A DNA stretch of 64,000 bases from Candidatus Micrarchaeota archaeon (GTDB taxonomy: Archaea; Micrarchaeota; Micrarchaeia; Micrarchaeales; CABMGC01). The notes under the pieces were generated by a model. It searched no databases and was not told the origin of the DNA. It saw only the letters and a program-made list of their open reading frames with translations. This document shows, piece after piece, positions 14,709-60,056 of this stretch; the first letter of the stretch is position 1; each line of letters starts with the position of its first letter. The stretch is from positions 9,829-73,828 of the forward strand of contig JAGWGN010000002.1 of assembly GCA_028867335.1 (NCBI GenBank), written 5' to 3'. The translations under genes were made by a program, and so were the position numbers.

Positions 14709-15250
14709 AACTACAATTCCTCTCATTCGATGCGATCTTTGCGATAGTCATCTTCACATTCGCGGTCTCGCTCTTAGCATTCATCTGGTACACTGTGAAC
14801 TCACAGCTCTCCATAGGTTCGGGCAACTCGGTGCAGAGCATGCAGCTGCAGCTTGAGGGCGTCTCGGAGAAGATACTGGGCTCCGGATACCCGCAGAACT
14901 GGTACTCCAACGTGGACACAAGCAACACGCTTACATGGGCGAACATCAGCGTCGGCCTGGGCAACGGGGTCAGCGGCGCGATCTCGATCTCCAAGCTTGC
15001 GACATTCGCCTCGATGGCTAACGGCAACTACCTCTACACAAAGCCTCTTCTTGGCGTCGGTTATGACTACTACATAGTGATCAGCACCGCAAACTACCAC
15101 ATGACAATCGGCAAGAAGCCAGCCGCGCAGATAGGCAGCGCCCTCAACGGAGTCACGCTGCAGAGCACAAGCAAGTCTGTGACGATAAACGGGCAGCCGG
15201 GCAACATGCAAATCTTTATATGGACAAACTCTTCATTTGGGATTGGTTAA
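14705..15250 (+). CDS. small pilin-like protein
   Basis: I prefer the start at 14705 (ATGA overlap with the upstream stop): MKLQFLSFDAIFAIVIFTFAVSLLAFIWY..., 181 aa. The portion of track ORF 14549..15250 upstream of this ATG lies inside the previous gene. Confidence 0.55.
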   Translation: MKLQFLSFDAIFAIVIFTFAVSLLAFIWYTVNSQLSIGSGNSVQSMQLQLEGVSEKILGSGYPQNWYSNVDTSNTLTWANISVGLGNGVSGAISISKLATFASMANGNYLYTKPLLGVGYDYYIVISTANYHMTIGKKPAAQIGSALNGVTLQSTSKSVTINGQPGNMQIFIWTNSSFGIG

Positions 15251-15251
15251 A

Positions 15252-41528: not shown

Positions 41529-42251
41529 CTAACTCTTCAGCTCGACGTATCCGAGCGAGACCATCTTGTCGAGTATCTGCTCGATCCTCGGCGCAGCGAT
41601 CTTGTAGTTCGCCGCAAACTCGGTTATGTCGATCGAGTTGTTGTGGGTGACTATCCAGTCCTGCACCATCGCCATCAGCGCCTCGTCGGAGTATGTCTGC
41701 AGCGCCTTGAGCTGCGCGCGCAGCTGCTTGTCCTCCTCGTCAAGCTGCGTCGTCTGTATCGTGAGGTTGCGGTTTGCCGAGGAGAGCTCTAAATTCAGCC
41801 TCCTTATCTCCCTGTACTCGGATAGAAGCGAATCGTACTTGTTGAATAGGGTGCTGTAGCTCTGGGAGAGGCTGTTTAGCACGTCATCGACAGAGGAGTC
41901 TATGTACTGGAAGAACTTCACGCTGTCGATCTGGTATGAGTCGTTGATCATAGAGAGGATGGAGGCGAGGTTCTTGATGACATACAGCCTCCTCACCTTC
42001 TCGCTGGTGTCAGGGGCTATGGAGTAGATCACGTGTATGCCGTCGCTCTTGATGTTTATCAGGTAGAATAGGAACGGTTTCTTCTTGATGTTTCTGCTCT
42101 CGACCTTCGCGATGCTAAGCTCCTCGCCGTTTAGCTTTACTGAGAAGAAGGGGATTGCAGAGAGCTTATCCTTTGCCTGCTCGAGCGTGCCGGTGAGCTT
42201 GCCTGGGAAATCTATCTCCTCAACTCTTGGCACAATCTCCTCATCAGGCAA
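41529..42251 (-). CDS. hypothetical protein with coiled-coil and C-terminal wHTH-like domain
   Basis: 240 aa. C terminus ITEFAANYKIAAPRIEQILDKMVSLGYVELKS. The central part has leucine heptads. Confidence 0.5.
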   Translation of the reverse strand: MPDEEIVPRVEEIDFPGKLTGTLEQAKDKLSAIPFFSVKLNGEELSIAKVESRNIKKKPFLFYLINIKSDGIHVIYSIAPDTSEKVRRLYVIKNLASILSMINDSYQIDSVKFFQYIDSSVDDVLNSLSQSYSTLFNKYDSLLSEYREIRRLNLELSSANRNLTIQTTQLDEEDKQLRAQLKALQTYSDEALMAMVQDWIVTHNNSIDITEFAANYKIAAPRIEQILDKMVSLGYVELKS

Positions 42252-42302: not shown

Positions 42303-42776
42303 TTACTTCGGCTGCTTTGCGGCGATTTTCGGGGTGTAGTTTAGCAGCGAAAGCAGGTAGAGGAAGACAACAAGCGCTATCGAGACCGCAATCGAGGTTA
42401 CGCTCGGCGAGAGTATTATCCCAAGGAGCGCAAATACGATCCCTATGCCCACATACACCGCCTGCCTCGACTCGTAGGCCTTGCGGCTCTGCTCGTATCC
42501 GAGCCTCTCGACGCTGTTCTGCGAGTGCCTTCCCGCGTCCTCCAGTATGACCACGCCCTCACCCTCAAACTTTGGGTTTACCGCGGCGTCCTTTGTCGCG
42601 TGCATATGCCTTGGGTAGCACTCCTTGCACCAAATCAGCCTGTTGTTCATGACTTTCAGGTGCAGCTTCTCCTTCACAAAGCGTATTGCGCGTATGACAT
42701 AGTCGACCTCAACCTCAAGGCCGTTCCTCTCGTTTCCGCAGCACACGCATACGCTCTTTTTTGCCATAACCATCAC
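42303..42776 (-). CDS. zinc-ribbon (CxxC...CxxC) protein with two C-terminal TM helices
   Basis: 157 aa. CVCCGNE...WCKECYP at the N terminus, then VYVGIGIVFALLGIIL and IAVSIALVVFLYLLSLL. Confidence 0.5.
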   Translation of the reverse strand: MMVMAKKSVCVCCGNERNGLEVEVDYVIRAIRFVKEKLHLKVMNNRLIWCKECYPRHMHATKDAAVNPKFEGEGVVILEDAGRHSQNSVERLGYEQSRKAYESRQAVYVGIGIVFALLGIILSPSVTSIAVSIALVVFLYLLSLLNYTPKIAAKQPK

Positions 42777-43072
42777 TCTATGCTAAGCACGACGATCTTG
42801 CCGAAAGTCTCGTTTATCTTCTCCTCGTCAAGAGCGTTGAATATCTCCGTTATGCTGATATCATCAATCCCCATCCTTCGAAACACGTTTGTTATGTCCC
42901 CCTGTTTTAGCCCCACCTTCTGGAGCATCCCGGCAAACGAGACCGCGTTTACGTGCCTGTGGAGCCTGTTGAGGTTCGCCTCAAGCTCATCCACGCTCTT
43001 GTCGTTCACCTTGAGCATCGCCAGCATCTTCTTTAGCTCAAGCCTGTTCACTACAAATGTGGATCCCGCCAA
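42773..43072 (-). CDS. small helical protein paralogous to the C-terminal tail of the VirB4-like ATPase
   Basis: 99 aa. RHVNAVSFAGMLQKVGLKQGDITNVFRRMGIDDISITEIF aligns with the ATPase tail RQLDVRGFVEILNEFKVDKQNIILLMRSIGLQDMIITRVF. Confidence 0.5.
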   Translation of the reverse strand: MAGSTFVVNRLELKKMLAMLKVNDKSVDELEANLNRLHRHVNAVSFAGMLQKVGLKQGDITNVFRRMGIDDISITEIFNALDEEKINETFGKIVVLSIE

Positions 43073-46331: not shown

Positions 46332-47471
46332 TCAGAGCTTTCCTATGAATGTTCCGGAGCTGTGCGCGAATCCGCCGATGAAGTCGGAGATTGTTATCAC
46401 CGCAAAGTACGTTATCGCCATTATGAGCGCAGGGTAGAAGAGTATCGAGAGCCAGTACGCGCCCATTGAGCTTTGGATGTCGTGTAGGGTGCCCACAAGC
46501 GGGCTGGACGCCGAGATCGCATTTTGCTCTGCACCGGTTCCGGATCCGAACTGGCTAAGCTGCTGCGTTGCCTGGGCCAGCGAGGTGGCGACACCACCTT
46601 GCGTGAAGTAGAACGCGACCGCAAAGAGCAGCGGCATTATGAAGAAGAACCCTATGGCTATCGCCATGAACATCCCTCCGAGCGAGCGCGTAGGTATGAA
46701 GGCCCTGAGTATTACTCCTGGCAACAGGAAAACCGGGATGGCGGCGTACATCGCAAATATGAGTATGTAATACTCGACATTTAGCACCAGCAGGCCCTCC
46801 ATCAGCAGGTACGCAACAATCTGCGCAGGAAGCAAAAAGAACAGATCGATCGCCCCCTTGAACGCCTGAACTATGTAGCTTGTCACGAATTTCGTTATGC
46901 CCGAGGCGGCAAAGGTCCCGAACTGCCCTGTGTCGGGCACGGCACCTTGAGGCCCAAGACTCACCCCAAGAGTGTAGCTTGAGTAATACGCGTCAACGCT
47001 GTAGATGTTAAATAGCCCAGTTATCAGCGTTGTGGTTTGCGTTATGGTGCCGGTTATGTAGGTTAGCGAGGTCACATACGGGTTTTGTGGCCCGGTGAAG
47101 AGGGACGGGAGCACCCCGATCATCACCGCTGCAATGAACATGAAGAGTATAACTATCAGGGCCGTAGCGGTGGCCTCGTATATCTCACCTACCCCGAAGT
47201 CCCTCAGCCTCTGGTTTCTCAGGGCAACTCCTATTGCGAAAAGTATTGCGGCTATTGAAAATGCGACGGTCATGACCGCAAACCCAACGGGCAGCCACTG
47301 CTGCCAGGCGTTGTAGACCGCCTGGTTCACGCTGCTGCAGTACCATGGCGCAAGGTTTTGTATGTCTAGCTGGTTTGTGGCGCACGGCCCCCCTGCGCTC
47401 TGCGCATTTGCAAGCGACATGGCAAATACCACTAAAAGCGCGACAGCGACAATTGACTGGGCCATTTTCAT
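46332..47471 (-). CDS. polytopic membrane protein, tandem paralog 1 of 6 (VirB6/TrbL/CedA-like candidate)
   Basis: 379 aa. Sec-type signal peptide ...AMSLANA/QSA. Family motif PGVILRAFIPTRSLGGMFMAIAIGFFFIMP. Confidence 0.7.
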   Translation of the reverse strand: MKMAQSIVAVALLVVFAMSLANAQSAGGPCATNQLDIQNLAPWYCSSVNQAVYNAWQQWLPVGFAVMTVAFSIAAILFAIGVALRNQRLRDFGVGEIYEATATALIVILFMFIAAVMIGVLPSLFTGPQNPYVTSLTYITGTITQTTTLITGLFNIYSVDAYYSSYTLGVSLGPQGAVPDTGQFGTFAASGITKFVTSYIVQAFKGAIDLFFLLPAQIVAYLLMEGLLVLNVEYYILIFAMYAAIPVFLLPGVILRAFIPTRSLGGMFMAIAIGFFFIMPLLFAVAFYFTQGGVATSLAQATQQLSQFGSGTGAEQNAISASSPLVGTLHDIQSSMGAYWLSILFYPALIMAITYFAVITISDFIGGFAHSSGTFIGKL

Positions 47472-47480
47472 GTTTTCACC

Positions 47481-48533
47481 TTATGCGACGCTCGTGAGCA
47501 GCGAGAGGAAGTCCATCCTCTCTCCCACCGCCTGCGAGAAGTCAATTATGAATGTGTTAACTATCGTGAAGGTTATAAGAGGCAGTACAAGCGTTCCTGC
47601 CAGTGCAATTCCAAGCCATTCAAATACGGAGTTAACAATTGCGAGGACCGGACCTGTTGGGTCGCTTAGAAGGGCGACCGCATTTATCGCGTTGATCGCC
47701 GGCTGAACGGCAAGCACGCTGAGCACCTGCACCAAAAATCCGTAGGTTATCGAGACCATTATTGGGAATATGAGCCCGATTCCAAGCGCAAAGGCTATCA
47801 TCGCCCCTCCAAAGCTCCTGGTTATCCCGAAGATCCTCGCCACAAGCCCTAGCGGCAGCAGTATCGCGAAGATGAGCATAGCGGCGTCAAGCAGCAGAAG
47901 CTGCACCTGGGAGAGTATTATCAGCGAACCTATTGCAAGAGTCGACCCCTCAAGGAACTCGGCTATGGGAAGCGAGTCTAGAGTAAGCCCCAGGCTCAGA
48001 CCGAAGTTTGATATCGCCGGATTGAAGGAGTACTTTAGCTGGAAGCTCGGGGTGGATGAGAATAATATGGTCGCCCCGCCGATCACGTTGTTTAGGTAGT
48101 AGACAATGTTGCTGTTGAAATTGAATAAGTCGCACTCGGAGAGCCCGTAGATATCCGTAACCTGCGTGCAGTCGCTGTGCACCCCCCAGACTGCGGGAAT
48201 CCCTGCGGCCACACTGCCCGCCCCGGGAACCAGGTTTAGGTTTGTGAACAGGGGGATTGGGTTTATCGTGTAGACCATCAGCGCGAATCCGCTGAAAATT
48301 ATGACAAGCAGAAATGAGAAGAGCGTCTCGTACATCTTCAGCCTCGCCCACGTCCTCATCTCGCTTCTTCCCATAATCGGCGAGAGGCCGTAGATCAGGC
48401 TGGCGATAAGCATTATGACAAGGACCCCCAGGGACGCGAACGGGAACCATCCTGTGATCGGCGAGCAGAGCAGCCCGCCCACTCCGCTAGAGCAGCTTGC
48501 AGCAAACATGAGTATAGGGTCTAGCATGATCAT
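47481..48533 (-). CDS. polytopic membrane protein, tandem paralog 2 of 6
   Basis: 350 aa. Family motif LGLVARIFGITRSFGGAMIAFALGIGLIFP. ATGA overlap with paralog 3. Confidence 0.7.
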   Translation of the reverse strand: MIMLDPILMFAASCSSGVGGLLCSPITGWFPFASLGVLVIMLIASLIYGLSPIMGRSEMRTWARLKMYETLFSFLLVIIFSGFALMVYTINPIPLFTNLNLVPGAGSVAAGIPAVWGVHSDCTQVTDIYGLSECDLFNFNSNIVYYLNNVIGGATILFSSTPSFQLKYSFNPAISNFGLSLGLTLDSLPIAEFLEGSTLAIGSLIILSQVQLLLLDAAMLIFAILLPLGLVARIFGITRSFGGAMIAFALGIGLIFPIMVSITYGFLVQVLSVLAVQPAINAINAVALLSDPTGPVLAIVNSVFEWLGIALAGTLVLPLITFTIVNTFIIDFSQAVGERMDFLSLLTSVA

Positions 48534-49723
48534 ACCACCTTCTTTAGCATGTCTCTTGCCTGCAGCGAAGGGGCGCCGAGCAGGTCGGCGAATCCCTCAA
48601 GCAGGCTATAGGATATGACAAACGAAATTATTATACCGAATATCTGGAACGTCGCGTTTATTATCGAGAAGATGTAGAAGTCAAAGATGTCCACGAACTC
48701 GCTTTGCACCGCAGCCTGCGCCACCTCTCCTGCAAGGGTCTGCAGCTGCGTGAAAGGGTCCTGCGCAGTTGCCGCAGAGCCAATCGAGGAGGAGCCAAGT
48801 ATGTACTGCCCGCTGCAGTCCGCCTGCTCTAGGCAGTGGTAGTTCACCGTTGTGAATGGGTAGATGAGCGCAGGGAAGAAGATGTAGAATCCTATGAAGA
48901 GCGCAATCAGAGTGCCACCCGCCGCGCGAGTCCACGGGAACGAGCGCATCAGCACCCCTGCAAAGAGCAGGAGCGGGAAGAGGTAGTACACTATCACCAT
49001 GAAGAAGACAACCCCTATCTCTATCCCCACGACGCCCGAGACGAGAGGGCTCAAGAATCCCACCAGCAGCAGATAAGGCGTTATCCCAGCAAGCGGGGCT
49101 ATGGATATTCCCATTCCGTTTGGCATCAGGTTTATCACAAACCCTGAGGCAATGCTGTATCCGTATGAAATCCCGTTCAGCCCACTCAGCCCAGCTAGGT
49201 GGCTGACCGCATCGCTCATGTATGTCTGGCACACCGAGCTGTATATCCCCTGAATGTCCTGGTAGCCCGCGGTCGGGTTTGCCCCAAGCGCCACAAGCGG
49301 CGCGGACCCGGCCGCGCCTGCCGAGGCTATCACGGCATTGCCAAGGTTGGAGATGAACACCATGCCCCCGCTGAGCACCGCGGCGCCCCCGAAGAGCACA
49401 ACGATCATAATTATGTTAAGTACGCTCTCAAGGTACTCTGTCTTGACAAACACCAAGATCCTGGGTATCCCAAAGCCGTACCCCACGGCATACATTATCG
49501 CAAGCGCAGCAAACACCATCGCAACTATCAGGAGCGCGACCTGCAGCACAAAGCCGTAGCTGTCAAAGTTTGGCCCAAGCCATGGGAACGAGCCTGCTAT
49601 CCCCCCCTGCCCGAAGAAGTAGCTGCACGTGTTCGCGAAGTTGATGATCGATTGCGCGTGTGCAGTGCCTGTGAGTGCCATGAGGAGCGCAAACGCGGCC
49701 AGTACGAAATTTTTGACAATCAT
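48530..49723 (-). CDS. polytopic membrane protein, tandem paralog 3 of 6
   Basis: 397 aa. Signal peptide ...LTGTAHA/QSI. Family motif FAGVLMRSFPWTRAAGGTLIALFIGFYIFFP. Confidence 0.7.
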   Translation of the reverse strand: MIVKNFVLAAFALLMALTGTAHAQSIINFANTCSYFFGQGGIAGSFPWLGPNFDSYGFVLQVALLIVAMVFAALAIMYAVGYGFGIPRILVFVKTEYLESVLNIIMIVVLFGGAAVLSGGMVFISNLGNAVIASAGAAGSAPLVALGANPTAGYQDIQGIYSSVCQTYMSDAVSHLAGLSGLNGISYGYSIASGFVINLMPNGMGISIAPLAGITPYLLLVGFLSPLVSGVVGIEIGVVFFMVIVYYLFPLLLFAGVLMRSFPWTRAAGGTLIALFIGFYIFFPALIYPFTTVNYHCLEQADCSGQYILGSSSIGSAATAQDPFTQLQTLAGEVAQAAVQSEFVDIFDFYIFSIINATFQIFGIIISFVISYSLLEGFADLLGAPSLQARDMLKKVV

Positions 49724-51778
49724 CTAAACCAGCTTTCCAAGCCCTGCTATGTCTGTGTCCCCGCCAAAGAGGAACGAGACGTTCTTCATCGCCGAGAGTA
49801 TTATCAGTATGTTGAGGAAGGGTATGACAAATCCCGCCACGGACATCAGCCCGTAGACGTCCATGAACTCCATCGAGGTAGCGACTGCGGCCGATGGTAC
49901 GCACGGGGTGCTGAGTATGCCCGTCAGCTGCGGAACCTGCGAAACGAATCCGCCAAATGTGAACGCCGCCCCGAAGCCGAGCGAGATCGCCATGAGTACC
50001 GAGTCCTTTGCCTCCTCTGCCGGAAGGTTGCCTGCAAGCGGCCAGCATCCGTTGTAGTTCGCTATGGCCGAGATGCTCGGGAAGACATAAAAGTTTGGGG
50101 TCAGCGAGTTGTATATTATGTCCCTGCAGTCTGGGCTAACGTTGGGATCGCAAGGACTCTTCTCAGGCCCCCATGCTCCCCCGGTAGCGAAGGCGAGATT
50201 TATCTGTATGTTGTCAGAGCTCGATGTCTGCGTGTCGGTTGTTATCGGATTTAGCCCAACCGCAACCGCCTGCGATACCGAGTTCATGTTCCCCTTGTCG
50301 TCAGTTACCGTCAGCTTTATCGTCGGATTTGAAGCGCTAGCATATGTGTGGCTTAGTCCCTGCGGCCATCCTGTCGAGGTCTTCCCGTCCCCCCAGTCCC
50401 ATGCTATCGTTGTCTTGGGGTTCCCGGTGTTTTGGTTGTCAACGCTTCCCTGTGGCGTGACGATCAGACCAGTAGTCGGAAGGCCGTGAAGGTATATCCC
50501 AGGAAGCTGCTGCTCGTTTCCGACCTGCGTCACCTGTACCGTTGCCACACCGTACTGGTCAACATTCACCTCAAAGCTCACAGGCAGCAGTGCGCCCTTG
50601 GCAGACTGCGCAGTCTGGGAGATGGCCGCCCCCGGAATTACATCCAGATTCGCGCTCGCGCTTCCCGACTGCCCGTTGCTCTGCACGTCAAGAGTTATGG
50701 TTTGTGGGCCAGGAAGGAATGTGTGGGTTGCCGACATCCCGCTGCTAGTGGCGCTGTTGTCGTTCCAGTTCCACGTTGCCTGCGGCGGGATAGGGGCCCC
50801 GACAAGCTGGCTTGTGGTCACCCCGCTGCCCAGCATGTTGTATTCGATTATCATCACCAGCGGCAGTATTATCACAATCACCAGGGTTATCCCCATCAGG
50901 AGCCCTCCCGCGCTCCTCGTGAAGGAGATCGCCCTGAGGATTATGCCTGCGGCAAGAAGGAAAGGCCACACCACGAGCAGTATGAACATTATGACCAGCT
51001 GAGTTAGGAACATGTACATTATGAATATCCCCTGGGTCTCAAGCGGCTTTGTCATGAATGTTATCAGAGAGTATCCAGCGAAAGGCTGTGAGGCCAAGTC
51101 TATCGATAGCAGCCTAGGCACCAGCGGGTCTGCGCAGGCGGACGGCAGGCAGAGCCCCGGATCGGACTTTAGGGTGGAGAGGAATCCGATCATTCCCTCG
51201 TAGACGTAGAGCCCGTTTAGGTTCGCAGCCGCCTGATTTGTGAGGTTTGCAATCATCACGTAGCTTGAGGCAAGTCCGTAGTTCACATACGAGCTCGCGC
51301 TCCCTCCGGAGTTCTGCGAGTTCTCCACCAGCGCGCACACAAAGCTGGTCGGGTCCCCCTGCAGAAGGCTGACCTGGGAATTCTGCAAATCGCCGCACAT
51401 GTTCGTGACGTGGCTGCCGAAGTCTCCTGTTGATGTGCCCACAAGGCTTGAGTTCGAGACAAAGCTTCCGAAGAGAATGAGGACGCTTATTATCAGCACA
51501 ACGTATATCGCAGTCCCTATCGATTGGCCAAGCTCTGTTATTCCCCTCGAGCTTATCTGCCCGTCGTTTAGCAGCTTGCCGATGATGTACAGGAAGAACC
51601 CTATCGCGATCGAGATGAATATCGCGATGGAGACTATCGGGAGCCATGAGCTGAGCGATCCGAGCGGATTGGTCACCTGGGTCGGGAAGTTGATCACCTG
51701 GGCCGAGGCGGAGCCAAAGAGGATGGCGAGCGCTAGCAAAGCGAGCGAAAACGTGATTGCAGTTTTGTTGTGCGCCAT
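49724..51778 (-). CDS. polytopic membrane protein, tandem paralog 4 of 6, with two PKD-like domains inserted in an external loop
   Basis: Track ORF 49724..51808. I prefer the ATG at 51778 (MAHNKTAITFSLALLALAILFGSASA/QV), 4 nt after the upstream stop. Family motif AAGIILRAISFTRSAGGLLMGITLVIVIILP. The insert carries ATWNWNDNS...HTFLPGPQTITLDV and TIAWDWGDGKTSTGWPQGLSHTYASASNPTIKLTVTDDKGN. Confidence 0.7.
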   Translation of the reverse strand: MAHNKTAITFSLALLALAILFGSASAQVINFPTQVTNPLGSLSSWLPIVSIAIFISIAIGFFLYIIGKLLNDGQISSRGITELGQSIGTAIYVVLIISVLILFGSFVSNSSLVGTSTGDFGSHVTNMCGDLQNSQVSLLQGDPTSFVCALVENSQNSGGSASSYVNYGLASSYVMIANLTNQAAANLNGLYVYEGMIGFLSTLKSDPGLCLPSACADPLVPRLLSIDLASQPFAGYSLITFMTKPLETQGIFIMYMFLTQLVIMFILLVVWPFLLAAGIILRAISFTRSAGGLLMGITLVIVIILPLVMIIEYNMLGSGVTTSQLVGAPIPPQATWNWNDNSATSSGMSATHTFLPGPQTITLDVQSNGQSGSASANLDVIPGAAISQTAQSAKGALLPVSFEVNVDQYGVATVQVTQVGNEQQLPGIYLHGLPTTGLIVTPQGSVDNQNTGNPKTTIAWDWGDGKTSTGWPQGLSHTYASASNPTIKLTVTDDKGNMNSVSQAVAVGLNPITTDTQTSSSDNIQINLAFATGGAWGPEKSPCDPNVSPDCRDIIYNSLTPNFYVFPSISAIANYNGCWPLAGNLPAEEAKDSVLMAISLGFGAAFTFGGFVSQVPQLTGILSTPCVPSAAVATSMEFMDVYGLMSVAGFVIPFLNILIILSAMKNVSFLFGGDTDIAGLGKLV

Positions 51779-51782
51779 AAAC

Positions 51783-52967
51783 TCAGCTAAAGAGGCTCTC
51801 CGACCCAAGGAAGTTTAGCGCCGCGCTGATTCCCTTGGCAAGCCCTGCCGCCAGCCCTATCGTTATTGCAAGGTCAAGCGCTATGAGCACAGTCGTCTGG
51901 AAAATGTACCCTGCCACCTGCATCCCGACGTTTGTTACTATCGCAGGGGCCGCGAAGATGGCTGTGAGCGGATCCGAGGACTTGAGGAATGTGCTAAAGA
52001 ACTCCCCTACAGCGCTGCCGTAAAAGTTTGTGGGCAGCTGGACCCCGCCGAATCCGAAGTCCGGCTGCGGGGCCGATCCAAAGAGCGAGGACTGAGTGAG
52101 CCCAGGAACATTGTAGCTTCCAGAGTACTGCGGGTAGGGGTTTGCGCAGCTTGCCTGCGAGGGGGTGCAGTACATCCAGTTTATTATCTGTGCATCCATA
52201 ACAAAAGTCATCGGGAAGATGAAATAGAAAGCTAGTGCTATGGCGAGGAACTCGTTTGCGGCCTGCCTGAGCCTAGGCCCGGTGAAGGAGAGGCTTCGCA
52301 TTATGAGCGCTACGGGAAGCACCACAGTCAGCGCTGCTGCCTGTATGAGCGGAAGGGCGAGGAACTGCAAAAAGAGCATCGAGAAGCTTAGGACAACAAG
52401 CGGTATGAAGACATCCGTTAGAACAGTTGCGTAGTTCTTGTATATCGAGCTGAAGTCAGGTGCGCCCACGCTTGCTGCGAATATCTTGGAGTTTTTCAGC
52501 CCGGGTATCAGGGGGTTGAGCGGCAGGTCTGGCAGCGCCTCCGAGAGCCCTGTGAGCACTCCGGAATAGATCGTGAACGCTATGCTTGTGGAGTAGATGC
52601 TGTTCATCAGCCCTATCCCGTTGACAAAGAGGAGCCCTCCCACGTAATGCTGCGCAAAGGAGAACGAGTCCTGGCTGGGCTGGGTGAGTTGCAGGCTGAC
52701 ATTGCAGGCCGTTGTGGCTATCCCCATTATGATGACGATTATCAGCATGCTGATTATCGCCTGCCCAAGCTCAAATCGCACAAATCCCCTGATCCTCTCC
52801 CTCTCCCTTCCCCCTGCAAAGTTTGCGATAAGATACACAAGGCCCGCTATCGTCAGGCTGAGCAGTATGACAAGAGCGCTTATCCCGATCCAGTCGTTGC
52901 TGTTTATCCCCCCAAAAGTGCAGCTGCTTGAAACAGCGGAGGATGCTTGGAATAGTAGGTTTTGCAT
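51783..52967 (-). CDS. polytopic membrane protein, tandem paralog 5 of 6 (most divergent)
   Basis: 394 aa. Degenerate motif VALIMRSLSFTGPRLRQAANEFLAIALAFYFIFP. No obvious cleavable signal peptide. Confidence 0.65.
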   Translation of the reverse strand: MQNLLFQASSAVSSSCTFGGINSNDWIGISALVILLSLTIAGLVYLIANFAGGRERERIRGFVRFELGQAIISMLIIVIIMGIATTACNVSLQLTQPSQDSFSFAQHYVGGLLFVNGIGLMNSIYSTSIAFTIYSGVLTGLSEALPDLPLNPLIPGLKNSKIFAASVGAPDFSSIYKNYATVLTDVFIPLVVLSFSMLFLQFLALPLIQAAALTVVLPVALIMRSLSFTGPRLRQAANEFLAIALAFYFIFPMTFVMDAQIINWMYCTPSQASCANPYPQYSGSYNVPGLTQSSLFGSAPQPDFGFGGVQLPTNFYGSAVGEFFSTFLKSSDPLTAIFAAPAIVTNVGMQVAGYIFQTTVLIALDLAITIGLAAGLAKGISAALNFLGSESLFS

Positions 52968-52971
52968 AATA

Positions 52972-54183
52972 TCACTTTATCTTGAGCTTCCCGAACTCTA
53001 TGTTTATCGTTCCCCCAAGCGACTTTGCTATGCTGTCTATTATAGGGAAGGCGATCGCAAGGTCAAGGATCAAGAGCAAAAACTGAACGACCGCAGGCAT
53101 GGTGAATCTAAAAACCCCGTTCAGGCCCGGATATATCGAGCTTATGCTTGCGAGCGCGTCTGCCGCTCCCTGCCCCTGCGGCAGATAAGAAGTCGCCGAA
53201 GAGATCCACCACGGCGCAGTGGCCGATGCGCCTGCCGTTCCGGGCACTGCTATGTACGTGTTCACTATGTTGCTTATCGGCTGGTTCACTATCAGTATTA
53301 TCGATGGAAAGACTATGGTTATCCCAATCCCTATCCCTATCAGGGTCCCCCCAATCCCCCTTACGAACGGCATCGCCCTGAAGATTATCCCCATAGGTAT
53401 CATGAATGCGAGTCCGATGAATACGAGCATCGGCATGAGGTAATACTCCATCCCTATCACTGTGTAAACTGGTAGGATTATCATGCTTATCGCGTCGTTT
53501 ATCAGTGACTCGTAGCCTCCCGCATCAGGGGCTCCAGCCAGCATCGGGTTTTTGTAGATTGAGAATCCTGTCCCCAAGGTGAATGTTGGGATTGCCTGAA
53601 GGATCGTGGCCCCCAGCGGAATGGGTATGTAGTATCCCACCTGCAGGTTGCTGATTGCTCCGAGTCCCAGGCTGATCCCAAGCAGGTACCCTATGTAGTT
53701 TGCGCCTCCAAGCATCACGCTGCCCCCTGAAGGGTTTGGTTGCACAGTGCCGCAGAAAGCGAGTTGCAAATAGCTCTGAGTGGCAGTGGTCAGCGCGGAG
53801 AGCGATGCGCCCAGCGAGCTGCCTGCAGGCACGTTCACAGAAGACCCGGCAAGGCCCACTGCCACGCTTCCAAGCAGGACCATTATTGAGTATATCCCTG
53901 CGATGAGCATCGCCGACTTTGCAACCTCCCAGTACTCCTTCTTCACCCAGTTGGAGAGCTGCGTTCCGGGAACCAGCTTTCCGACTATGTATCCTATAGC
54001 GATTATGTCAAAGGAGATGCTCAAGGCGATGAGCGCAATCCCTATCAAGGGAATCTGGTTTATCGTTATGCCCACCGGTGCGGTATTTGTGCAGATGTTC
54101 TGGGCGTTTGAGACCCCGAAGAGGAAAAGGAAGAGCAGCAGTGGCGCCATTACCCTAGAAAGTCGCCCTCCCATCAAAACCAA
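52972..54183 (-). CDS. polytopic membrane protein, tandem paralog 6 of 6
   Basis: 403 aa. Signal peptide ...LFGVSNA/QNI. Family motif PMGIIFRAMPFVRGIGGTLIGIGIGITIVFP. Confidence 0.7.
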   Translation of the reverse strand: MVLMGGRLSRVMAPLLLFLFLFGVSNAQNICTNTAPVGITINQIPLIGIALIALSISFDIIAIGYIVGKLVPGTQLSNWVKKEYWEVAKSAMLIAGIYSIMVLLGSVAVGLAGSSVNVPAGSSLGASLSALTTATQSYLQLAFCGTVQPNPSGGSVMLGGANYIGYLLGISLGLGAISNLQVGYYIPIPLGATILQAIPTFTLGTGFSIYKNPMLAGAPDAGGYESLINDAISMIILPVYTVIGMEYYLMPMLVFIGLAFMIPMGIIFRAMPFVRGIGGTLIGIGIGITIVFPSIILIVNQPISNIVNTYIAVPGTAGASATAPWWISSATSYLPQGQGAADALASISSIYPGLNGVFRFTMPAVVQFLLLILDLAIAFPIIDSIAKSLGGTINIEFGKLKIK

Positions 54184-54217: not shown

Positions 54218-54991
54218 TCAGGCGTTCTTGATGATAGAGAAGCGCTTCATGTACGCCTCCGCCTGGAAGATTACAAAATAAGGAAGTATGATCAGCGAGC
54301 TGATCAGCAGCACTATGTAGCGGCTTGCCTGCGTGCCGCTTATCCCTATTGCAAGGAAGTCCACGACCGAGAGCGTGACAAGCAGGAGGAAGATCCCGAA
54401 TAGGAAGTACTGCGGCTCGCGCACAACAAGCTTTGCGCTGTCCTTTATCGCGCGTATCATGTGCTTGTTGTCGATCACCATCGCCGCTGGCGCATAGAAT
54501 ATCAGCATGAATCCGATGAACCCGAAGATCGCCGTCAATATCCCTGAGATCCCGAGATAGTATCCTATCACATTGACTATTATCAGCAGGAACTGGAAGG
54601 CAAGCAGAAGCACAAAAACCTTGGCGGTGTATTTCTCTATGCCCTTGAGCACCCCCCTGCCCGTCTTCACGTGCGTCCTTGTTGACTTGACTATCAGGCT
54701 GATTGCGACAAGGGCGAAGCTGAGGAACAAGAGAGAGACGAAGATTGGTATTACGATTGCGACAAGGCTGATTATGTTTAGGTTGATGAATATGCTTGCG
54801 CTCCTAAGGAATATCCCCCCGGAGGTTATGTAGGTGGGGAGCGGCGCGAGCACAGGTATCAGAAAGGAGATCAAAAATGGGATGGAGAAGAGAGCTATGA
54901 ACTTGAGGTTCTCGCTGTACGTCTCAAAGGAGTCCTCGATTATGCCTGCCATGAATACCAATACGCATTGGAGTGCAATAAATAAAAACAC
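54218..54991 (-). CDS. polytopic membrane protein (about 6 TM), unknown function
   Basis: 257 aa, almost entirely hydrophobic helices. 3 nt from the upstream gene. Confidence 0.6.
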   Translation of the reverse strand: MFLFIALQCVLVFMAGIIEDSFETYSENLKFIALFSIPFLISFLIPVLAPLPTYITSGGIFLRSASIFINLNIISLVAIVIPIFVSLLFLSFALVAISLIVKSTRTHVKTGRGVLKGIEKYTAKVFVLLLAFQFLLIIVNVIGYYLGISGILTAIFGFIGFMLIFYAPAAMVIDNKHMIRAIKDSAKLVVREPQYFLFGIFLLLVTLSVVDFLAIGISGTQASRYIVLLISSLIILPYFVIFQAEAYMKRFSIIKNA

Positions 54992-54994
54992 ATC

Positions 54995-56920
54995 TCATTT
55001 TCCGCTGCTCATCCCCAGTATGCTCTGGTTGAAGACGCCATCCGAAACATAGAGGTGCTCGCCGTTGTAAATGTTTGCCCTAACCCCATACACCGGGTTG
55101 CCTGATGAGGGCCTTATGTACATCACCAGACTATACGAAGAGGCATTGCCTGGCAGCGCTATTTTGTTTACGTTCACCATGCACCTATAATCCTCCCCGC
55201 CACACTGCACGCTGTCATTTATCAGCGCATAGTTTAGTATGCCTGCAAAGCCTATGTTGTACTTTGAGATGACCCCCGCGAAGACGTACACGGAATCGTT
55301 TGATAGGTTCGCGTAATGGATGGTTGCCGTGTATACCGTTTTGTTCAGGGCGCTGTCAAAATGAATGCTTGCGTTGCTCACGCTCAGATTGAAATTATTT
55401 TGGTAGGCGAGGTGCGAACCGCAAATCAGATAAATAGGGACTGCCACAACCACGGCCACGATGCACAGAACCGCATTCCTGTTTTCGCCCATCCATCTTC
55501 TTATCTGGCCCTTTCCGCCTTTTTGTGCGATGAAAAGGCTGACTATCGCAAATCCTGTGAAGAACGTGTAGTATATAGGTATCGAGTGGGACAAAAAGAG
55601 GAAGGGCACCATTGCAAAGATTCCGACAAGCCTCTTCTGGTTTAGGTAAGCGAAGAGCATCGCAAAAAGTGCCATCGCTGCGAGAAACACTATGGAGAAT
55701 GTGCCCAAAAGCATGTGGTAGTTTGTCGCAATCAGGTACCCTATCGGTGAGGACGACTCAGGAAGAAGCAGCTGGTTTACCGGGCCAAAAAGGTTGCCAA
55801 AAAAGGCGCTCGGGTTCAAAAGTATGAAGTAAAGGTTGAGTGCGATAAAGACTCCCAGCGATCCGATTAGGTTCTGCGCGCCTTTTCTAATCCCGGAGTT
55901 GCTTGCCGAGTATATTATCAGGAGTATCACTGGGAACCAAAGCTGCTCCTGTATGGATAGGCATAGCCCCAAGAAGAGCCATGAATATCTGCTCTCAAGT
56001 TTTGCGTATGCTACCAGGAGCAGGGCGAACATCAGGAATATGGTTATGGAGGAGAGGTACGCCATCGCGATTGTCAAGAAGAGTATTATGCCGTAGACCG
56101 GCTTCTCTATGTATCTTTTCTCGACCAAAAGCGCTGTCGCAAAGAAGGCAAGCAGCAGGAAAATCATCCCCTGCGCCTCTATGTCTATGTTTACAAGGTT
56201 CTGCAAAGTCGGGGTTGAAATCAGATAGAACGGCATAAATGAGAGCAAAAAGAGGGACGGATAGTTTAGTGTACCGATTATGTGGTTCGTAGTGGTTATG
56301 CTGGGCGAGTTTATCGCGCCGCTTGTCGAGTTGTAGAAGATCTGGGATGAAACGGACATCCCGTAGGGGTTCATCCCGGCAAGCAGGTATTTCGTGCTTG
56401 CGAACTGTATGAATATCTCATCGTCTATTTTGTAGTGGTGGTAGACCAGCCCGGAGAAGAAGTAGAGGATCATCACCACAACAAACATCCCAAAGAGCAT
56501 CGCTGACAGCTTTCGGTAGCCCTGCCGATAAAGGTAGAGCCCGAAGAACGTCAGGAAGATAAGCGGCAAGAAGAGCACGAAGTTTATCGCCACGTACTGG
56601 TACGCCGAGACAAGGTAAGCTGTCATCGTCGTCCTCGCGCCAGTCTCAACGAGAAGCAGGATCAGGAAGTTGATAACCAAAAAGGCAAACGTGCCATTTA
56701 ATGCCAGCTTCCCAGGTTCTGAAACTTTCCTTTTTCCCTCCGATATCAAGAATAGCGTTGAATAAGCTACGAAAAGAATCGCATCGGCAAGCGTTGCAAG
56801 CTGAACATAGAAAGAGATTAGCCCGAAGACGGCAAGAGCTGTAGCGAAGCTGATGAAAACAAACGAGGCTATGAAGAAAAAAAGCCTGTACCTGCCCTTA
56901 TCGGACTTTATAATCTCCAT
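54995..56920 (-). CDS. large polytopic membrane protein (12 or more TM) with C-terminal ectodomain; possible GT-C-type glycosyltransferase
   Basis: 641 aa. An early-loop acidic motif followed by HHYKIDDEIFIQFASTKYLLAGMNPYG resembles the D/E loop plus G..pY of GT-C (DUF2029/GT87/PMT-like) enzymes. The C-terminal ~170 aa are sequon-rich. The function is tentative. Confidence 0.55.
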   Translation of the reverse strand: MEIIKSDKGRYRLFFFIASFVFISFATALAVFGLISFYVQLATLADAILFVAYSTLFLISEGKRKVSEPGKLALNGTFAFLVINFLILLLVETGARTTMTAYLVSAYQYVAINFVLFLPLIFLTFFGLYLYRQGYRKLSAMLFGMFVVVMILYFFSGLVYHHYKIDDEIFIQFASTKYLLAGMNPYGMSVSSQIFYNSTSGAINSPSITTTNHIIGTLNYPSLFLLSFMPFYLISTPTLQNLVNIDIEAQGMIFLLLAFFATALLVEKRYIEKPVYGIILFLTIAMAYLSSITIFLMFALLLVAYAKLESRYSWLFLGLCLSIQEQLWFPVILLIIYSASNSGIRKGAQNLIGSLGVFIALNLYFILLNPSAFFGNLFGPVNQLLLPESSSPIGYLIATNYHMLLGTFSIVFLAAMALFAMLFAYLNQKRLVGIFAMVPFLFLSHSIPIYYTFFTGFAIVSLFIAQKGGKGQIRRWMGENRNAVLCIVAVVVAVPIYLICGSHLAYQNNFNLSVSNASIHFDSALNKTVYTATIHYANLSNDSVYVFAGVISKYNIGFAGILNYALINDSVQCGGEDYRCMVNVNKIALPGNASSYSLVMYIRPSSGNPVYGVRANIYNGEHLYVSDGVFNQSILGMSSGK

Positions 56921-57543: not shown

Positions 57544-59706
57544 ATGAATGCGACTGGGATAGCTAGCATTTTTGGGTTAGGAATAACCATTTTCATGCTT
57601 AGTTTTTTCGGTTCCGCATATTTTTTCTCACCTTCTCAACATGGCCTTAACACGCTTTCTACCCCATCGCAACAGATACAAATGAGCCTTTCCCAATCAG
57701 TTAGTGGGGGAGGATTAACCGTAACACTAAGTGGAACCATAACGGACCCCAACCAAGGCGCTCAGATAAGCTATGGTTCTGTATCGGTAAATTGGGGAGA
57801 CGGGTCCTCAACACAAGGGTTGTATCCGGTCCATACTTACTCTCATTCGGGTTCCTATACAATAACAACAACTGTGCGGGATAGTTTAGGCAACACTGCC
57901 ACAAATACAAAAAATGTGAATCTTGCCGGAGGGAGCGGCGGCACAACTATTTCTACCTCATTTCCTGGAATAACCGATGCTTCTACAGGTTTCACTTCGC
58001 CTACCCTTAATTTCAACCCACAAGTAGGTGGTAACGGTATGTTCGTAACTGTTAGCGGAACTATAGTGGACCCAAACAAGGGTGCAAGCATAAGATCTGT
58101 GACATGGGACTGGGGCGATGGCTCTCCAGACACCACTGGCTTTTCGCCACAGCATAGCTATACCATTCCTGGGCAGTACAGTATTTCAGGAACGGTAGTT
58201 GATACTTTTGGAGAGGCCTCAAGCCAGATTGAATCAGTCAGCGTCTCACAAGGTTCTGGTGCAACCATTCAGATCATTACCACAAACAATCAGGGCCAGA
58301 ATAATCTGCCAATTTCAATTTCAGTGACTGCAACAACAAGCGGTATGACAGTAACACCACGCGGCACCATAAACGACCCAAATCCTGCAGCCGCTACAAT
58401 ATCTGTAACCTGGGACTGGGGTGACAACAGTGCGCAATCTAACGGCTGGCCTTCAGGCCTCAGTCATACCTATTCTCAGTCAGGAACTTACATAATAACT
58501 ATTACTGCAACTGATGACCTAGGGCTTCGCAACTCTCAATCCATAACAACTACGGTTGGTGGAGGCTCCTCAACATCTTCTGGTTCATCTGGCGGAATAC
58601 AGATACAGTTCAATTTGATTAAAAATGGCGGACTCAAAGTGACCCCACAGGGGTCTGCAACAGATACTGCGCAAGGCTCAGTGTTTAGTTCCGTAATCTG
58701 GGACTGGGGAGACGGAACTCCGGACACTCACGGCTGGCCTTCAGGCCTAAGTCATACCTACGCGCAAGGCGGAACATACACTGTAACATTTTCTGTTTCA
58801 GACAACTTCGGTCAGAGCGCCTCTGCAACACAGACAGTTTCGCTTCAGTCCGCCCTCTCACAAATCGGGTTCAATGTCAACTACCAGGCAAGTGGCCTTA
58901 CAGTTACCCCTTCTGGTAGCATAAACGATCCAAACGATGCCGCGAAGACTCTTTCGGTTAGCTGGGACTGGGGCGATGGAAGTTCGCCATCAGGTGGCTG
59001 GCCTTCAGGCCTCAGCCACACTTATGCATCTGCGGGGCAGTACGCAGTTACAATAACAGCGACAGATGACATAGGCCAGAGTAACACGAACGTCCAGCTC
59101 GTTACGGTTTCAGGAACAAGCGGGGGCACGACTTCCGGAGGCGTTTCAGGCAAACCCATTTCAATAAGCGTAAGCTATCCAAAGAGTGGGTTAAAGGTCA
59201 CTCCATCGGGTTCAATAAATGATCCAAACGATGCCGCGACATCAATTACGACAAACTGGGACTGGGGAGACGGCACAGCTCCTTCAACGGGCTGGCCTTC
59301 AGGCCTCAGCCACACATACTCGCAGCAGGGTACATACATCATAACATTGACTGCCACAGACAACATAGGGACAACCAACACTCAGAAAACGTCAGTCTCT
59401 GTTAGCCCTTCAGCCACCACGACAATCCAGCAATCCTCGATAGTGTCGGGCCAGCCTATCGCGATAAACGTCAACTATCAGAAAAGCGGGGAGACGGTAA
59501 TTCCCCAGGGGAGCATAAACGACCCTAACACCCTTGCCACCTCTCTGAATGTTCTCTGGAGCTGGGGCGACGGAACAACATCGGGTGCATGGCCTTCAGG
59601 CCTCAGCCACACCTACATAACTCCTGGATCATACACAATCACAGTCACAGCAAGGGACAATCTCGGGCTTACAAACACTGCAAGCCAGACGGTAAATGTG
59701 CAATAG
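57544..59706 (+). CDS. membrane-anchored or secreted protein with seven PKD domains
   Basis: 720 aa. N-terminal hydrophobic segment IASIFGLGITIFMLSFFGSAYFF. Seven units carry W(D/S)WGDG....GWPSGLSHTY...G.Y.IT.TA.D..G. Confidence 0.85.
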   Translation: MNATGIASIFGLGITIFMLSFFGSAYFFSPSQHGLNTLSTPSQQIQMSLSQSVSGGGLTVTLSGTITDPNQGAQISYGSVSVNWGDGSSTQGLYPVHTYSHSGSYTITTTVRDSLGNTATNTKNVNLAGGSGGTTISTSFPGITDASTGFTSPTLNFNPQVGGNGMFVTVSGTIVDPNKGASIRSVTWDWGDGSPDTTGFSPQHSYTIPGQYSISGTVVDTFGEASSQIESVSVSQGSGATIQIITTNNQGQNNLPISISVTATTSGMTVTPRGTINDPNPAAATISVTWDWGDNSAQSNGWPSGLSHTYSQSGTYIITITATDDLGLRNSQSITTTVGGGSSTSSGSSGGIQIQFNLIKNGGLKVTPQGSATDTAQGSVFSSVIWDWGDGTPDTHGWPSGLSHTYAQGGTYTVTFSVSDNFGQSASATQTVSLQSALSQIGFNVNYQASGLTVTPSGSINDPNDAAKTLSVSWDWGDGSSPSGGWPSGLSHTYASAGQYAVTITATDDIGQSNTNVQLVTVSGTSGGTTSGGVSGKPISISVSYPKSGLKVTPSGSINDPNDAATSITTNWDWGDGTAPSTGWPSGLSHTYSQQGTYIITLTATDNIGTTNTQKTSVSVSPSATTTIQQSSIVSGQPIAINVNYQKSGETVIPQGSINDPNTLATSLNVLWSWGDGTTSGAWPSGLSHTYITPGSYTITVTARDNLGLTNTASQTVNVQ

Positions 59707-60056
59707 AAACGCAGATACAAGCATCTTTTTATAACCTTAAAAGAGATTCCTTGACATATGGCCTGGCAGAATATATTAGTTAAAAATTTGCTACTTATTT
59801 TCATCGGATGTGCACTGATTAGCGCATCCCTCTCAGCATCCGCAACGCTTTCCGGATACACCGTAACATCAAACAATTCGATTCACTCGACGATGGACCC
59901 TTTCATAATAAATGTCAGCTACGCTGTTAGCTCTCTTAAAGTCACCCCGCTAGGAGTGGTTGTAGATCCAAACAATGATGCAAGAACAATATTTACAACC
60001 TGGAGCTGGGGCGACGGTTCGGTCACAACTGGCTGGCCTTCAGGCCTCAGCCACAC
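58444..60056 (+). repeat. six in-frame copies of a near-identical ~26-nt unit (GGCTGGCCTTCAGGCCTCAGCCACAC) encoding GWPSGLSH
   Basis: Copies start near 58444, 58732, 58996, 59290, 59590 (first bases differ) and 60031. Flanking codons are much less conserved at the nucleotide level. Confidence 0.8.

Follow-up and report, generated by a model that had tools for sequence, protein, structure and literature searches.

We examined a 64,000-nucleotide stretch of DNA (the window) from a Candidatus Micrarchaeota metagenome-assembled genome (GenBank assembly GCA_028867335.1, contig JAGWGN010000002.1, positions 9,829 to 73,828 of the forward strand) and focused on six consecutive genes, M1 to M6, which encode polytopic membrane proteins at positions 46332 to 54183 of the window. 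Micrarchaeota (DPANN) are tiny archaea that live attached to other archaea. An earlier reading of the sequence alone, referred to below as the original prediction, had described the six as tandem paralogs that look like VirB6, TrbL, and CedA, the channel proteins of type IV secretion systems (T4SSs) and related machines. In the annotation of this genome, the paralog proteins appear as hypothetical proteins (KGH65_01555 and KGH65_01560), and all six, together with S276 and S275, two proteins encoded next to the array, and several other partners, are annotated merely as such.

Six ancient paralogs with a fixed copy number

All six open reading frames (ORFs) were found head to tail on the minus strand, and translation of the window reproduces exactly each of the six motif blocks quoted in the original prediction. 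The signal peptides that it quoted are likewise present in M1, M3, M4, and M6, with an A-x-A type site before Gln. M2 and M5 open at the position of the mature N terminus, which leaves no room for a signal peptide. For M4, translation could begin at a TTG or at the ATG at position 51778; the ATG is likelier because it leaves a 4-nt gap to M5, the same spacing as at the neighboring junctions. The start of M2 and the stop of M3 overlap by 4 nt.

The six proteins are real, ancient paralogs of one membrane protein family. Smith-Waterman alignments gave z-scores of 2.8 to 12.5 for all 15 pairs against shuffles that preserve local 20-aa composition. When the six ortholog alignments were compared with hhalign, all 15 pairs matched with probabilities of 95.9 to 99.7% (E values, 5e-9 to 4e-27), M3 being closest to M6 (99.7%). 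Other membrane proteins of the same gene cluster, used as controls, reached at most 1.5% against M1. Identity between paralogs is ∼20%. Pairwise BLAST E values become marginal once scaled to a large database, as would be expected if the shared block were mere hydrophobic compositional similarity among unrelated membrane proteins. We give this explanation almost no credence: it is refuted by the shuffle z-scores and by the hhalign profiles, and the low scores of the cluster's other membrane proteins and the near-invariant Arg, Arg, and Pro residues also speak against it. The paralogy asserted in the original prediction therefore held when the proteins were aligned.

The best-conserved stretch in every paralog is the common block R-x5-R-x2-GG...P, with a mean column conservation of 0.58 to 0.77. 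In M1 numbering, P280 is invariant and R256 and R262 occur in at least 90% of the sequences (108 to 150 family members). M5 had been described as carrying a degenerate copy; its variant block (R..f.Gp.lre, with no GG) is conserved among M5 orthologs, which corrects that description. The external loops had been proposed as the variable parts of these proteins, and column conservation is indeed lowest there (0.19 to 0.27 at its low in the external region), with values of 0.02 to 0.14 in a PKD insert in external loop 2 of M4. This insert (aa ∼345 to 557; PKD_4 in Pfam at aa 448 to 513, E value 3e-13) is 30 to 51% identical to repeats of two adjacent PKD-repeat proteins. The length of the M4-position protein varies from 335 to 649 aa across orthologs, and this variation, together with the likeness to the neighboring PKD proteins, suggests domain shuffling into the M4 loop. 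M1 orthologs have an external N-terminal tail with an invariant C-x12-W-Y-C (M1 residues 30 and 43 to 45), probably a disulfide-stabilized external element specific to the M1 paralog. At least one tail Cys is kept in five of the six window paralogs, and M4 has none.

A first homolog profile search was dominated by M1 orthologs. None of the 115 profile matches has a Pfam domain, and those that are named are hypothetical proteins, nearly all from Micrarchaeota. For the genome scan, which covered one genome per GTDB species, M1 orthologs served as the query, a mixed-paralog alignment being too divergent. An M1 relative was found in 140 GTDB species representatives; the best 80 of these are essentially all Micrarchaeota, although a few bins are labeled otherwise, and the cultured Ca. 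Micrarchaeum sp. A_DKE, whose genome is complete, is among the 80. Six tandem family ORFs, no more and no fewer, were counted in 64 of 83 related loci; 3 loci have seven because of frameshift-split genes, and every locus with fewer than six ends at a contig edge. Six copies in the same order, as 1:1 orthologs, were thus present in all 67 loci that span the array. Conservation is strongest for M1, whose orthologs were found in 81 loci at 45% identity; positional orthologs of M2, M3, and M6 were found in 77, 76, and 62 loci, respectively. In distant genomes, the window paralogs match their own positional orthologs at 30 to 46% identity (E values, 1e-37 to 1e-104) and other paralogs at E values of 1e-3 to 1e-8 only. 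The fixed number of six, the same order, and the 1:1 orthology imply that the duplication is ancient and that the copies are not redundant. The sixfold duplication predates the radiation of these lineages, and each copy has been retained as a distinct gene. The statement that six paralogous polytopic membrane proteins occur in an archaeon is accordingly confirmed, the genome being one of Micrarchaeota and the array being conserved there.

The copies could also be redundant variants, used singly or a few at a time, that are retained because they let the surface vary or the host range switch. Such a role has been put forward for VirB6 or VirB2 genes that occur in tandem in Rickettsiales, Bartonella, and Patescibacteria, and tandem pilin arrays with such a rationale occur in Patescibacteria (PMC12102498). 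The external loops of the Micrarchaeota proteins, which evolve fast and vary in length, and the swappable PKD module of M4 would suit such a role. However, none of the 67 spanning loci has gained or lost a copy, and each position forms an orthologous lineage of its own with paralog-specific features such as the M5 block. Moreover, the low identity across paralogs points to ancient subfunctionalization and not to turnover or gene conversion, and the short junctions (−4 to 9 nt) suggest coupled, equal expression. Because of this constancy of copy number, separate conservation of lineages, and tight translational coupling, we consider redundancy quite improbable.

The surrounding cluster, its pilin, and its ATPase

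The array is part of a cluster of ∼16 genes that takes up ∼18 kb of a ∼1-Mb genome (Table 1). The cluster is tightly packed and collinear, and the offsets of its genes fall within narrow interquartile ranges; it is retained gene by gene in all examined Micrarchaeota loci that span the region, one of them from a cultured strain. The gene order is pilin, 641 aa, 257 aa, M6 to M1, S276, S275, and ATPase, followed by the genes for proteins of 99, 157, 240, and 795 aa; the junctions measure −4 to 54 nt from the pilin gene through the 240-aa gene, with a gap of 3 nt between the 641-aa gene and the next. The cluster is chromosomal and adjoins topoisomerase VI in the window and ribosomal-protein genes elsewhere. 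In view of this setting and the phylum-wide synteny, a mobile-element origin was rejected.

Table 1. Locations in the window of the six paralogs, their cluster partners, and two adjacent PKD-repeat proteins
Feature	Position	Strand	Description
240-aa cytoplasmic protein	41529-42251	minus	Coiled coil and C-terminal winged-helix-like domain; accompanies the ATPase beyond Micrarchaeia
795-aa bitopic envelope protein	38979-41366	minus	Last conserved cluster gene; no Pfam family; orthologs in 47 loci
157-aa protein	42303-42776	minus	Cys-rich N terminus, C-terminal transmembrane helix; 46 loci; no Pfam family
99-aa conserved protein	42773-43072	minus	Similar to ATPase C-terminal tail; orthologs in 30 loci
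ATPase, 502 aa	43077-44585	minus	CedB/VirB4/HerA superfamily; counterpart of the VirB4 C-terminal motor half
S275, 275 aa	44618-45445	minus	Paralog of S276, same build
S276, 276 aa	45447-46277	minus	Two N-terminal transmembrane helices and a soluble domain
Paralog M1, 379 aa	46332-47471	minus	Signal peptide ANA/QS; core block 46632-46721
Paralog M2, 350 aa	47481-48533	minus	No signal peptide; core block 47763-47852
Paralog M3, 397 aa	48530-49723	minus	Signal peptide AHA/QS; core block 48872-48961
Paralog M4, 694 aa (TTG) or 684 aa (ATG 51778)	49724-51808	minus	Signal peptide ASA/QV; core block 50861-50950
Paralog M5, 394 aa	51783-52967	minus	No signal peptide; variant block without GG, 52212-52304
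Paralog M6, 403 aa	52972-54183	minus	Signal peptide SNA/QN; core block 53305-53391
257-aa polytopic membrane protein	54218-54991	minus	No family match; 46 loci at fixed offset, 53% identity
641-aa polytopic membrane protein	54995-56920	minus	First large cluster gene; no Pfam family; 23 loci, 36% identity
VirB2/TrbC-like pilin, 137 aa	56958-57371	minus	Signal peptide, two hydrophobic helices, short basic loop
PKD-repeat protein	57544-59706	plus	Just outside the cluster; WDWGDG...GWP.GLSHTY signature in common with the M4 insert
PKD-repeat protein	59758-60717	plus	Just outside the cluster; WDWGDG...GWP.GLSHTY signature in common with the M4 insert

The original prediction missed a VirB2/TrbC-like pilin that is encoded in the same operon as the array. 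The window pilin matches the Pfam family T4SS_pilin (PF18895) with an E value of 1.5e-4 and 22.2 bits, which is below the cutoff of 26.6. Among 27 pilin orthologs, 7 match TrbC/VirB2 (PF04956; best E value, 1.1e-6) and 5 match PF18895. The orthologs have one conserved Cys just past the signal-peptide cleavage region and one invariant Cys at or near the C-terminal end; a disulfide between the two ends of the pilin would mimic the head-to-tail cyclization of the bacterial T-pilin and TrbC. Some genomes (L032 and L079) contain two tandem pilin genes.

A VirB4-like ATPase had been placed beside the array. It does belong to the same operon, but it lies two genes downstream and is not adjacent. In Pfam, the protein matches DUF87 (7e-15), AAA_10, and P-loop_TraG; in NCBIfam, it matches the VirB4-like model conju_CD1110 (6e-18), CedB (5e-17), and CedD (7e-17), with HerA models about equal. 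The ATPase is 71 to 73% identical across Micrarchaeota, far above its membrane partners. Micrarchaeota orthologs filled a search for its homologs, but Ced-like relatives were reached when clustered representatives were searched. Two of these, P0410 and P0408, are ∼900 aa long, 30 to 31% identical to the Micrarchaeota ATPase, and possess two N-terminal transmembrane (TM) helices. Both are CedB-like (1e-34 to 1e-36; 1.5e-36 for P0408), covering the model from position 51 or 72 to position 587 of 590. Their operons encode, in order, proteins of 84 aa, 291 aa, and 60 to 65 aa, the ATPase, and a protein of ∼430 aa; by NCBIfam, the 84-aa protein is CedA1-like (8.8e-16) and the 291-aa protein is CedA/CedE-like over nearly its full length (6e-23 and 1.4e-25).

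These fused relatives bear on S275 and S276, which match each other with an hhalign probability of 97.1%. A hidden Markov model (HMM) of S276 matches aa 3 to 247 of the fused 888-aa ATPase P0408 (E value, 1.3e-6), and this match to a CedB-like N-domain indicates that S275 and S276 are a split-off, duplicated form of the ATPase membrane/N-domain module. In Pfam, neither S275 and S276 nor the fused ATPases matched VirB3, VirB8, or the N-domain of VirB4. A split and duplicated N-module recalls CedB and CedD, which cover different parts of the VirB4 N-domain. The CedB-like ATPases of the CedA1-CedA operons (L090, 10001-12742; L091, 1224-3890) have a ∼250-aa C-terminal extension with the pattern D-L-V-V-D...A-V-E-V-E-T, which looks like a restriction-endonuclease-type nuclease after a winged helix.

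Several of the remaining cluster proteins can be described further. The 99-aa protein matches ATPase C termini of other genomes in blastp (E values, 3e-4 to 4e-9) and looks like a free-standing copy of the ATPase tail domain. Among 25 orthologs of the 240-aa protein, 18 match a ZapB-like coiled coil, 8 match EAP30/Vps36, and 7 match HTH_Cmi2_C; its C-terminal winged-helix-like domain gives weak matches of the EAP30/Vps36, Cmi2-C, and CdvB_HTH type. This protein may be the cytoplasmic adaptor or DNA-binding partner of the ATPase. The 795-aa protein consists of an N-terminal TM helix, a large external domain, a second TM helix, and a cytoplasmic C-domain, and it has an ortholog in lineage L087 as well (HMM E value, 7e-101). 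The 257-aa membrane protein is unrelated to the six paralogs (hhalign, 0.6%). No homologs of VirB5, VirB7, VirB8, VirB9, VirB10, or VirB11 were recognized in the cluster.

Tests for kinship with VirB6 and CedA

Membership in the VirB6/TrbL family, as suggested in the original prediction, was not upheld. The TrbL/VirB6 model PF04610 matched neither the six proteins at E values of ≤1 nor 102 family members at E values of ≤10, and a sequence profile search of the PDB gave 0 matches. A comparison with an alignment of 73 sequences built from Agrobacterium fabrum VirB6 (pTiC58) is taken up below; its sensitivity can be judged from VirB6 and CedA, accepted homologs that reach just 1.5% in the same hhalign setup, which makes the test against VirB6 an insensitive one. 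Comparisons by hhalign with single VirB2, VirB3, VirB4, VirB5, and VirB8 sequences and with Gram-positive PrgI or VirB6-like proteins were uninformative, and even the pilin failed to match VirB2.

Affinity to the archaeal proteins CedA and CedE was examined by several routes. The six window proteins did not match the CedA and CedE models (NF041796 and NF053657) at E values of ≤0.1. Across 18,950 NCBIfam models and 108 family members, the lowest E value nevertheless belonged to Ced_CedA, which was matched by 2 members (best E value, 7.3e-4) at scores well under the 330-bit cutoff, so that equivalog membership fails and the match hints at no more than remote homology.

A further relationship lies in the N-terminal hairpin of the paralogs, which consists of a Cys, a first TM helix ending in Y-A-x4-P, a basic loop, and a second TM helix, and which aligns with the cluster's own pilin. 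The M5 hairpin is the most pilin-like of the six (hhalign probability, 89.6%; E value, 1.9e-6; 66 columns), with a score of 41.0 compared to 13.7 ± 2.5 for shuffles. The superfamily profile (19%; score, 29.7), M6 (19%; 26.5), and M2 (13%; 23.9) align with the pilin in the same register. None of 50 local shuffles reached these scores (z-scores, ∼5 to 11), and reversed sequences and unrelated membrane proteins gave at most 1.6%. A relation of this kind between pilin and channel has been reported for CedA and CedA1 and for VirB6 and VirB2 by Beltran et al. (PMC9905601). In our NCBIfam scan, the CedA1 model matches the N termini of CedA homologs.

The C-terminal half of the paralogs can be aligned, though weakly, in register with three CedA homologs (from L090, L091, and L172), which form a thin reference alignment with an effective number of sequences (Neff) of 1.85. 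In this register, TRSLGGMFMAIAIGFFFIMP pairs with GRSLGTTLMSSSIVLAIGLP, and farther on, in the final helix and the tail, FYP...FIGG lies opposite IFP...LLGG of the CedA homologs. Against this three-sequence reference, M1 gave an hhalign probability of 14% and a score of 32.1 over 102 columns (shuffles, 16.2 ± 2.7), and the superfamily profile gave 19.7% and a score of 28.3 (shuffles, 13.5 ± 2.5); none of 60 shuffles reached the real scores (z-score, ∼6). Two motifs in a fixed order, R-S-[LV]-G (P at +18) and then [FY]P...[LI]GG, occur in all three CedA homologs that cover the region and in 0 of 2587 non-family ORFs.

The predicted topology comprises five TM helices with the N terminus outside and the C terminus inside, and a large external helical bundle between TM2 and TM3. 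It is based on hydropathy, the helices of the AlphaFold2 (AF2) model of M1, the PKD insert in loop 2 of M4, and the distribution of Arg and Lys, which are confined to the tail and two short loops. A single TM helix had been proposed ahead of the large external region; there are two, forming the hairpin. The predicted topology matches that of VirB6: for A. tumefaciens VirB6, Jakubowski et al. reportedly described in 2004 five TM helices, an external N terminus, an internal C terminus, and a large central external loop. The AF2 model of M1 has a predicted local distance difference test score (pLDDT) of 86.5 and is made up entirely of long helices (residues 42 to 84, 87 to 126, 131 to 164, 186 to 257, 259 to 309, and 324 to 365). 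When this model was compared to 350,542 chains with Foldseek, TrwI/VirB6 (7o3v_F) ranked first, a match that is not significant (E value, 0.11; probability, 0.90; TM-scores, 0.25/0.33), and four further VirB6 chains were in the top 35. For M6, whose model was built from a paralog-based alignment and is of moderate confidence (pLDDT, 67), VirB6 chains ranked 11 and 27, with E values of 2.8 to 5.3 and yet the highest TM-scores in the list (0.28/0.38). The reference structures, 7o3v and 8rtd, show TrwI/VirB6 as part of the R388 stalk.

A further possibility is that the six are subunits of a permease for solutes or nutrients that has nothing to do with the pilus machine: they are polytopic and helical, charged residues are conserved at the edge of the membrane, and symbionts do need uptake systems. 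However, no likeness to transporter families was found in Pfam, NCBIfam, or the PDB, and the proteins have just five helices, most of which reach far outside the membrane. With a pilin-like hairpin as well, and with a pilin and a secretion-type ATPase as operon partners in place of a binding protein or an ABC ATPase, we regard a permease as very improbable.

Taken together, the hairpin, the C-terminal half, the topology, and the fold are four independent and individually weak lines that agree on a likeness to CedA/VirB6. On sequence comparison, affinity to archaeal CedA/CedE appears better supported than VirB6/TrbL membership, through similarities that are weak but in register and controlled by shuffles. 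CedA-type ancestry of the six proteins is likely; the original prediction was right about the kind of machine, and its interpretation as a whole is partly supported. We think it reasonably likely that the six represent an expanded CedA/VirB6-type channel or platform component of a T4SS-derived, chromosomal, Ced/Ted-related machine that is conserved across Micrarchaeota.

It is important to note that a number of results weigh against this reading. The six proteins are claimed by no Pfam or NCBIfam family, and hhalign probabilities against the VirB6 alignment were 0.1 to 0.2% for the paralog profiles and 0.0 to 0.1% for the superfamily. The best Ced_CedA match is barely above the noise of the same list (0.0018 and 0.0023). 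The Pfam copy scanned here excluded the CedA1 family PF27251, so its negatives do not bear on that family; precomputed Pfam results that include PF27251 had no match in L001 and L002, either to the pilin or to the paralogs. The hhalign probabilities to the CedA homologs are low (14 to 20%) and depend on the three-sequence alignment, and the ordered motif pattern was defined after both families had been viewed. The fold matches are not significant, and TTYH proteins rank first for M6, above VirB6. No relaxase or VirD4-type coupling protein was recognized among the cluster genes in Pfam or NCBIfam; as the same is true of Ced and Ted, this argues against plasmid-type conjugation and not against a T4SS-derived machine. 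Finally, ATPase relatives at 38 to 56% identity (lineages L086 to L089) keep S275-like and 240-aa genes with no adjacent six-gene array: a single S275/S276-like gene precedes the ATPase in L086 and L087, and a 240-aa-type gene is next to it in L086, L087, and L089. The ATPase module thus predates its fusion with the array or has a wider distribution than that fusion, and it can occur where no array adjoins it.

Since all signals of homology to known channel proteins are weak, some weight must be given to the alternative that the six are lineage-specific envelope proteins, such as S-layer anchors, adhesins, or host-contact proteins, with no CedA/VirB6 ancestry, and that they act as accessory or surface parts of the machine or are simply co-regulated with it. 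The lack of a significant match to a known family or solved fold, the large variable external loops with an adhesion-type PKD insert in M4, the abundance of surface proteins in the window (Laminin_G_3 giants and PKD proteins), and the ATPase relatives that lack an adjacent array would all agree with it. However, the best-conserved part of these proteins is the block at the membrane and cytoplasmic face and not the external loops. The N-terminal hairpin is homologous to the cluster's VirB2-like pilin, the C-terminal half is in register with CedA homologs at scores above all shuffles, and the array stands beside the ATPase module throughout the class. On balance, we consider an origin as unrelated envelope proteins unlikely.

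Proposed architecture and comparison with known systems

A hetero-oligomer, as suggested in the original prediction, appears to agree best with the constant number of copies and their position-by-position orthology. In the arrangement that we envisage, all six would be inserted with the N terminus outside and the C terminus inside, M1, M3, M4, and M6 by way of a cleaved Sec signal peptide and M2 and M5 with the first helix as a reverse anchor. One copy of each paralog would make up a hetero-oligomeric ring or platform, whose pseudo-sixfold symmetry would match a hexameric ATPase. The platform would sit over the ATPase, docked via S275 and S276, with the conserved cytoplasmic R-x5-R-x2-GG loops along its inner face. 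The pilin-like hairpins could provide a seat that feeds membrane pilin into a pilus or conduit, and the long external helical bundles and variable loops, including the PKD insert of M4, would reach toward the host through the space beneath the S-layer. ATP hydrolysis would then drive pilin extraction and/or the movement of substrate between symbiont and host, candidate substrates being DNA, as in Ced, or other host-derived macromolecules.

The most specific version of this model is a pseudo-sixfold hetero-hexameric CedA/VirB6-type ring with one of each paralog on a hexameric CedB-like motor that forms the envelope complex for exchange between Micrarchaeota and host; we rate it as doubtful. Cryo-tomograms of the Micrarchaeota strain ARM-1 show intercellular nanotubes that meet a 21-nm barrel-shaped "docking platform" in the symbiont envelope (bioRxiv 10.1101/2024.05.20.594898), and it is speculation that this barrel is the product of the cluster described here. 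If true, the molecular identity of a host-interaction conduit in DPANN archaea would be known for the first time, and a T4SS channel that is obligately heteromeric would have its first example. DPANN archaea are provisioned by their hosts, and cryo-tomography has revealed tubes and a large complex in a Micrarchaeon to which no genes have been assigned. The cluster has hallmarks of a pilus or transfer machine with kinship to archaeal Ced/Ted and to bacterial conjugation systems, and it is a concrete, testable candidate for the host-interaction apparatus. If the channel component always consists of six distinct subunits, its architecture would be new and would bear on how a VirB6-type platform matches a hexameric motor. 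A common origin of pilin and channel proteins has been proposed, and the pilin-like hairpin in each paralog would add independent evidence for it from archaea.

In full-text literature searches, neither this Micrarchaeota cluster nor a channel family of six paralogs turned up; the literature does cover Ced, Ted, the systems of Patescibacteria, and VirB4-like domains in nanohaloarchaeal giant proteins. What is new here is a probable Ced/Ted-type, T4SS-derived system in a DPANN phylum with a sixfold expanded, highly divergent channel component and a split ATPase.

The closest comparison is with CedA and CedE of the crenarchaeal exchange-of-DNA (Ced) system and with the CedA homologs beside CedB-like ATPases in L090 and L091. 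These are likewise polytopic, have an N-terminal hairpin that resembles the cognate pilin, and share their operon with that pilin and an ATPase of the CedB/VirB4 type; the C-terminal halves have R-S-x-G...P(+18) and [FY]P...[LI]GG in common, with order and register preserved. In Sulfolobales, both CedA and its paralog CedE are required (PMC11868833), which is a precedent for a multi-paralog channel. However, CedA and CedE are ∼260 to 290 aa long and present in one or two copies, whereas the Micrarchaeota proteins are 350 to 690 aa long with two large external insertions and form six fixed paralogs, four of them with cleavable signal peptides. They also fall below the threshold of every CedA, CedE, and CedA1 model. 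Further differences from Ced are that the Micrarchaeota pilin matches TrbC/VirB2 models and not CedA1, that the N-domain of the ATPase is split into two genes, and that the organism is a DPANN symbiont. In the Ted system of Thermoproteales, a chromosomal pilus system, TedA is a VirB6-like channel (PMC9905601). Its pilin, TedC, carries a signal peptide that signal peptidase I removes, and the same is predicted for the Micrarchaeota pilin; TedA is single copy and is likened to the six proteins by description, not by sequence.

Among bacterial systems, VirB6, TrwI, and TrbL resemble the Micrarchaeota proteins in predicted topology, in long helices that project from the membrane, and in having VirB2 and VirB4 homologs as operon partners, but they have no sequence or profile similarity to the six (probability, 0.1%). 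TrwI is a homopentamer with VirB5, in contrast to the six different subunits encoded here. The rvh system of Rickettsiales likewise has several VirB6-type genes in a row (RvhB6a-e), and its organisms are host dependent with reduced genomes (PMC2653234); the original prediction had drawn this comparison. It stands only as an analogy: the rvh proteins are bacterial, recognizable TrbL members with huge extensions, whereas the Micrarchaeota array is archaeal and ancient, gives no TrbL signal, and consists of exactly six genes in fixed order across the phylum. Patescibacteria, which are ultrasmall episymbionts, similarly have a conserved chromosomal T4SS with VirB4, VirB3, VirB6, and VirB2 homologs that is relaxase free in most genomes and whose genes are essential for host-dependent growth in one tested strain (PMC12102498). 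These organisms are bacterial, and the expanded part of their system is the VirB2 pilin and not, as in Micrarchaeota, the channel protein.

Other genes of the window encode further surface-related functions. At positions 11292 to 20152 of the plus strand, three consecutive genes encode large secreted proteins of 1138, 725, and 915 aa with Laminin_G_3/concanavalin-like lectin domains, one of them with a PQQ-like beta-propeller as well; these are candidate host-adhesion proteins. A type II/IV secretion-family ATPase (T2SSE; E value, 1e-33) is encoded beside a gene for a 409-aa protein at positions 22881 to 25630 of the minus strand, and the two probably form a type IV pilus or archaellum-like assembly pair of a second surface-filament system. 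At positions 6855 to 8363 of the minus strand lies the gene for a 502-aa protein of the exosortase EpsH family (E value, 5e-14), probably an archaeosortase, which bears on the anchoring of the many surface proteins encoded nearby.

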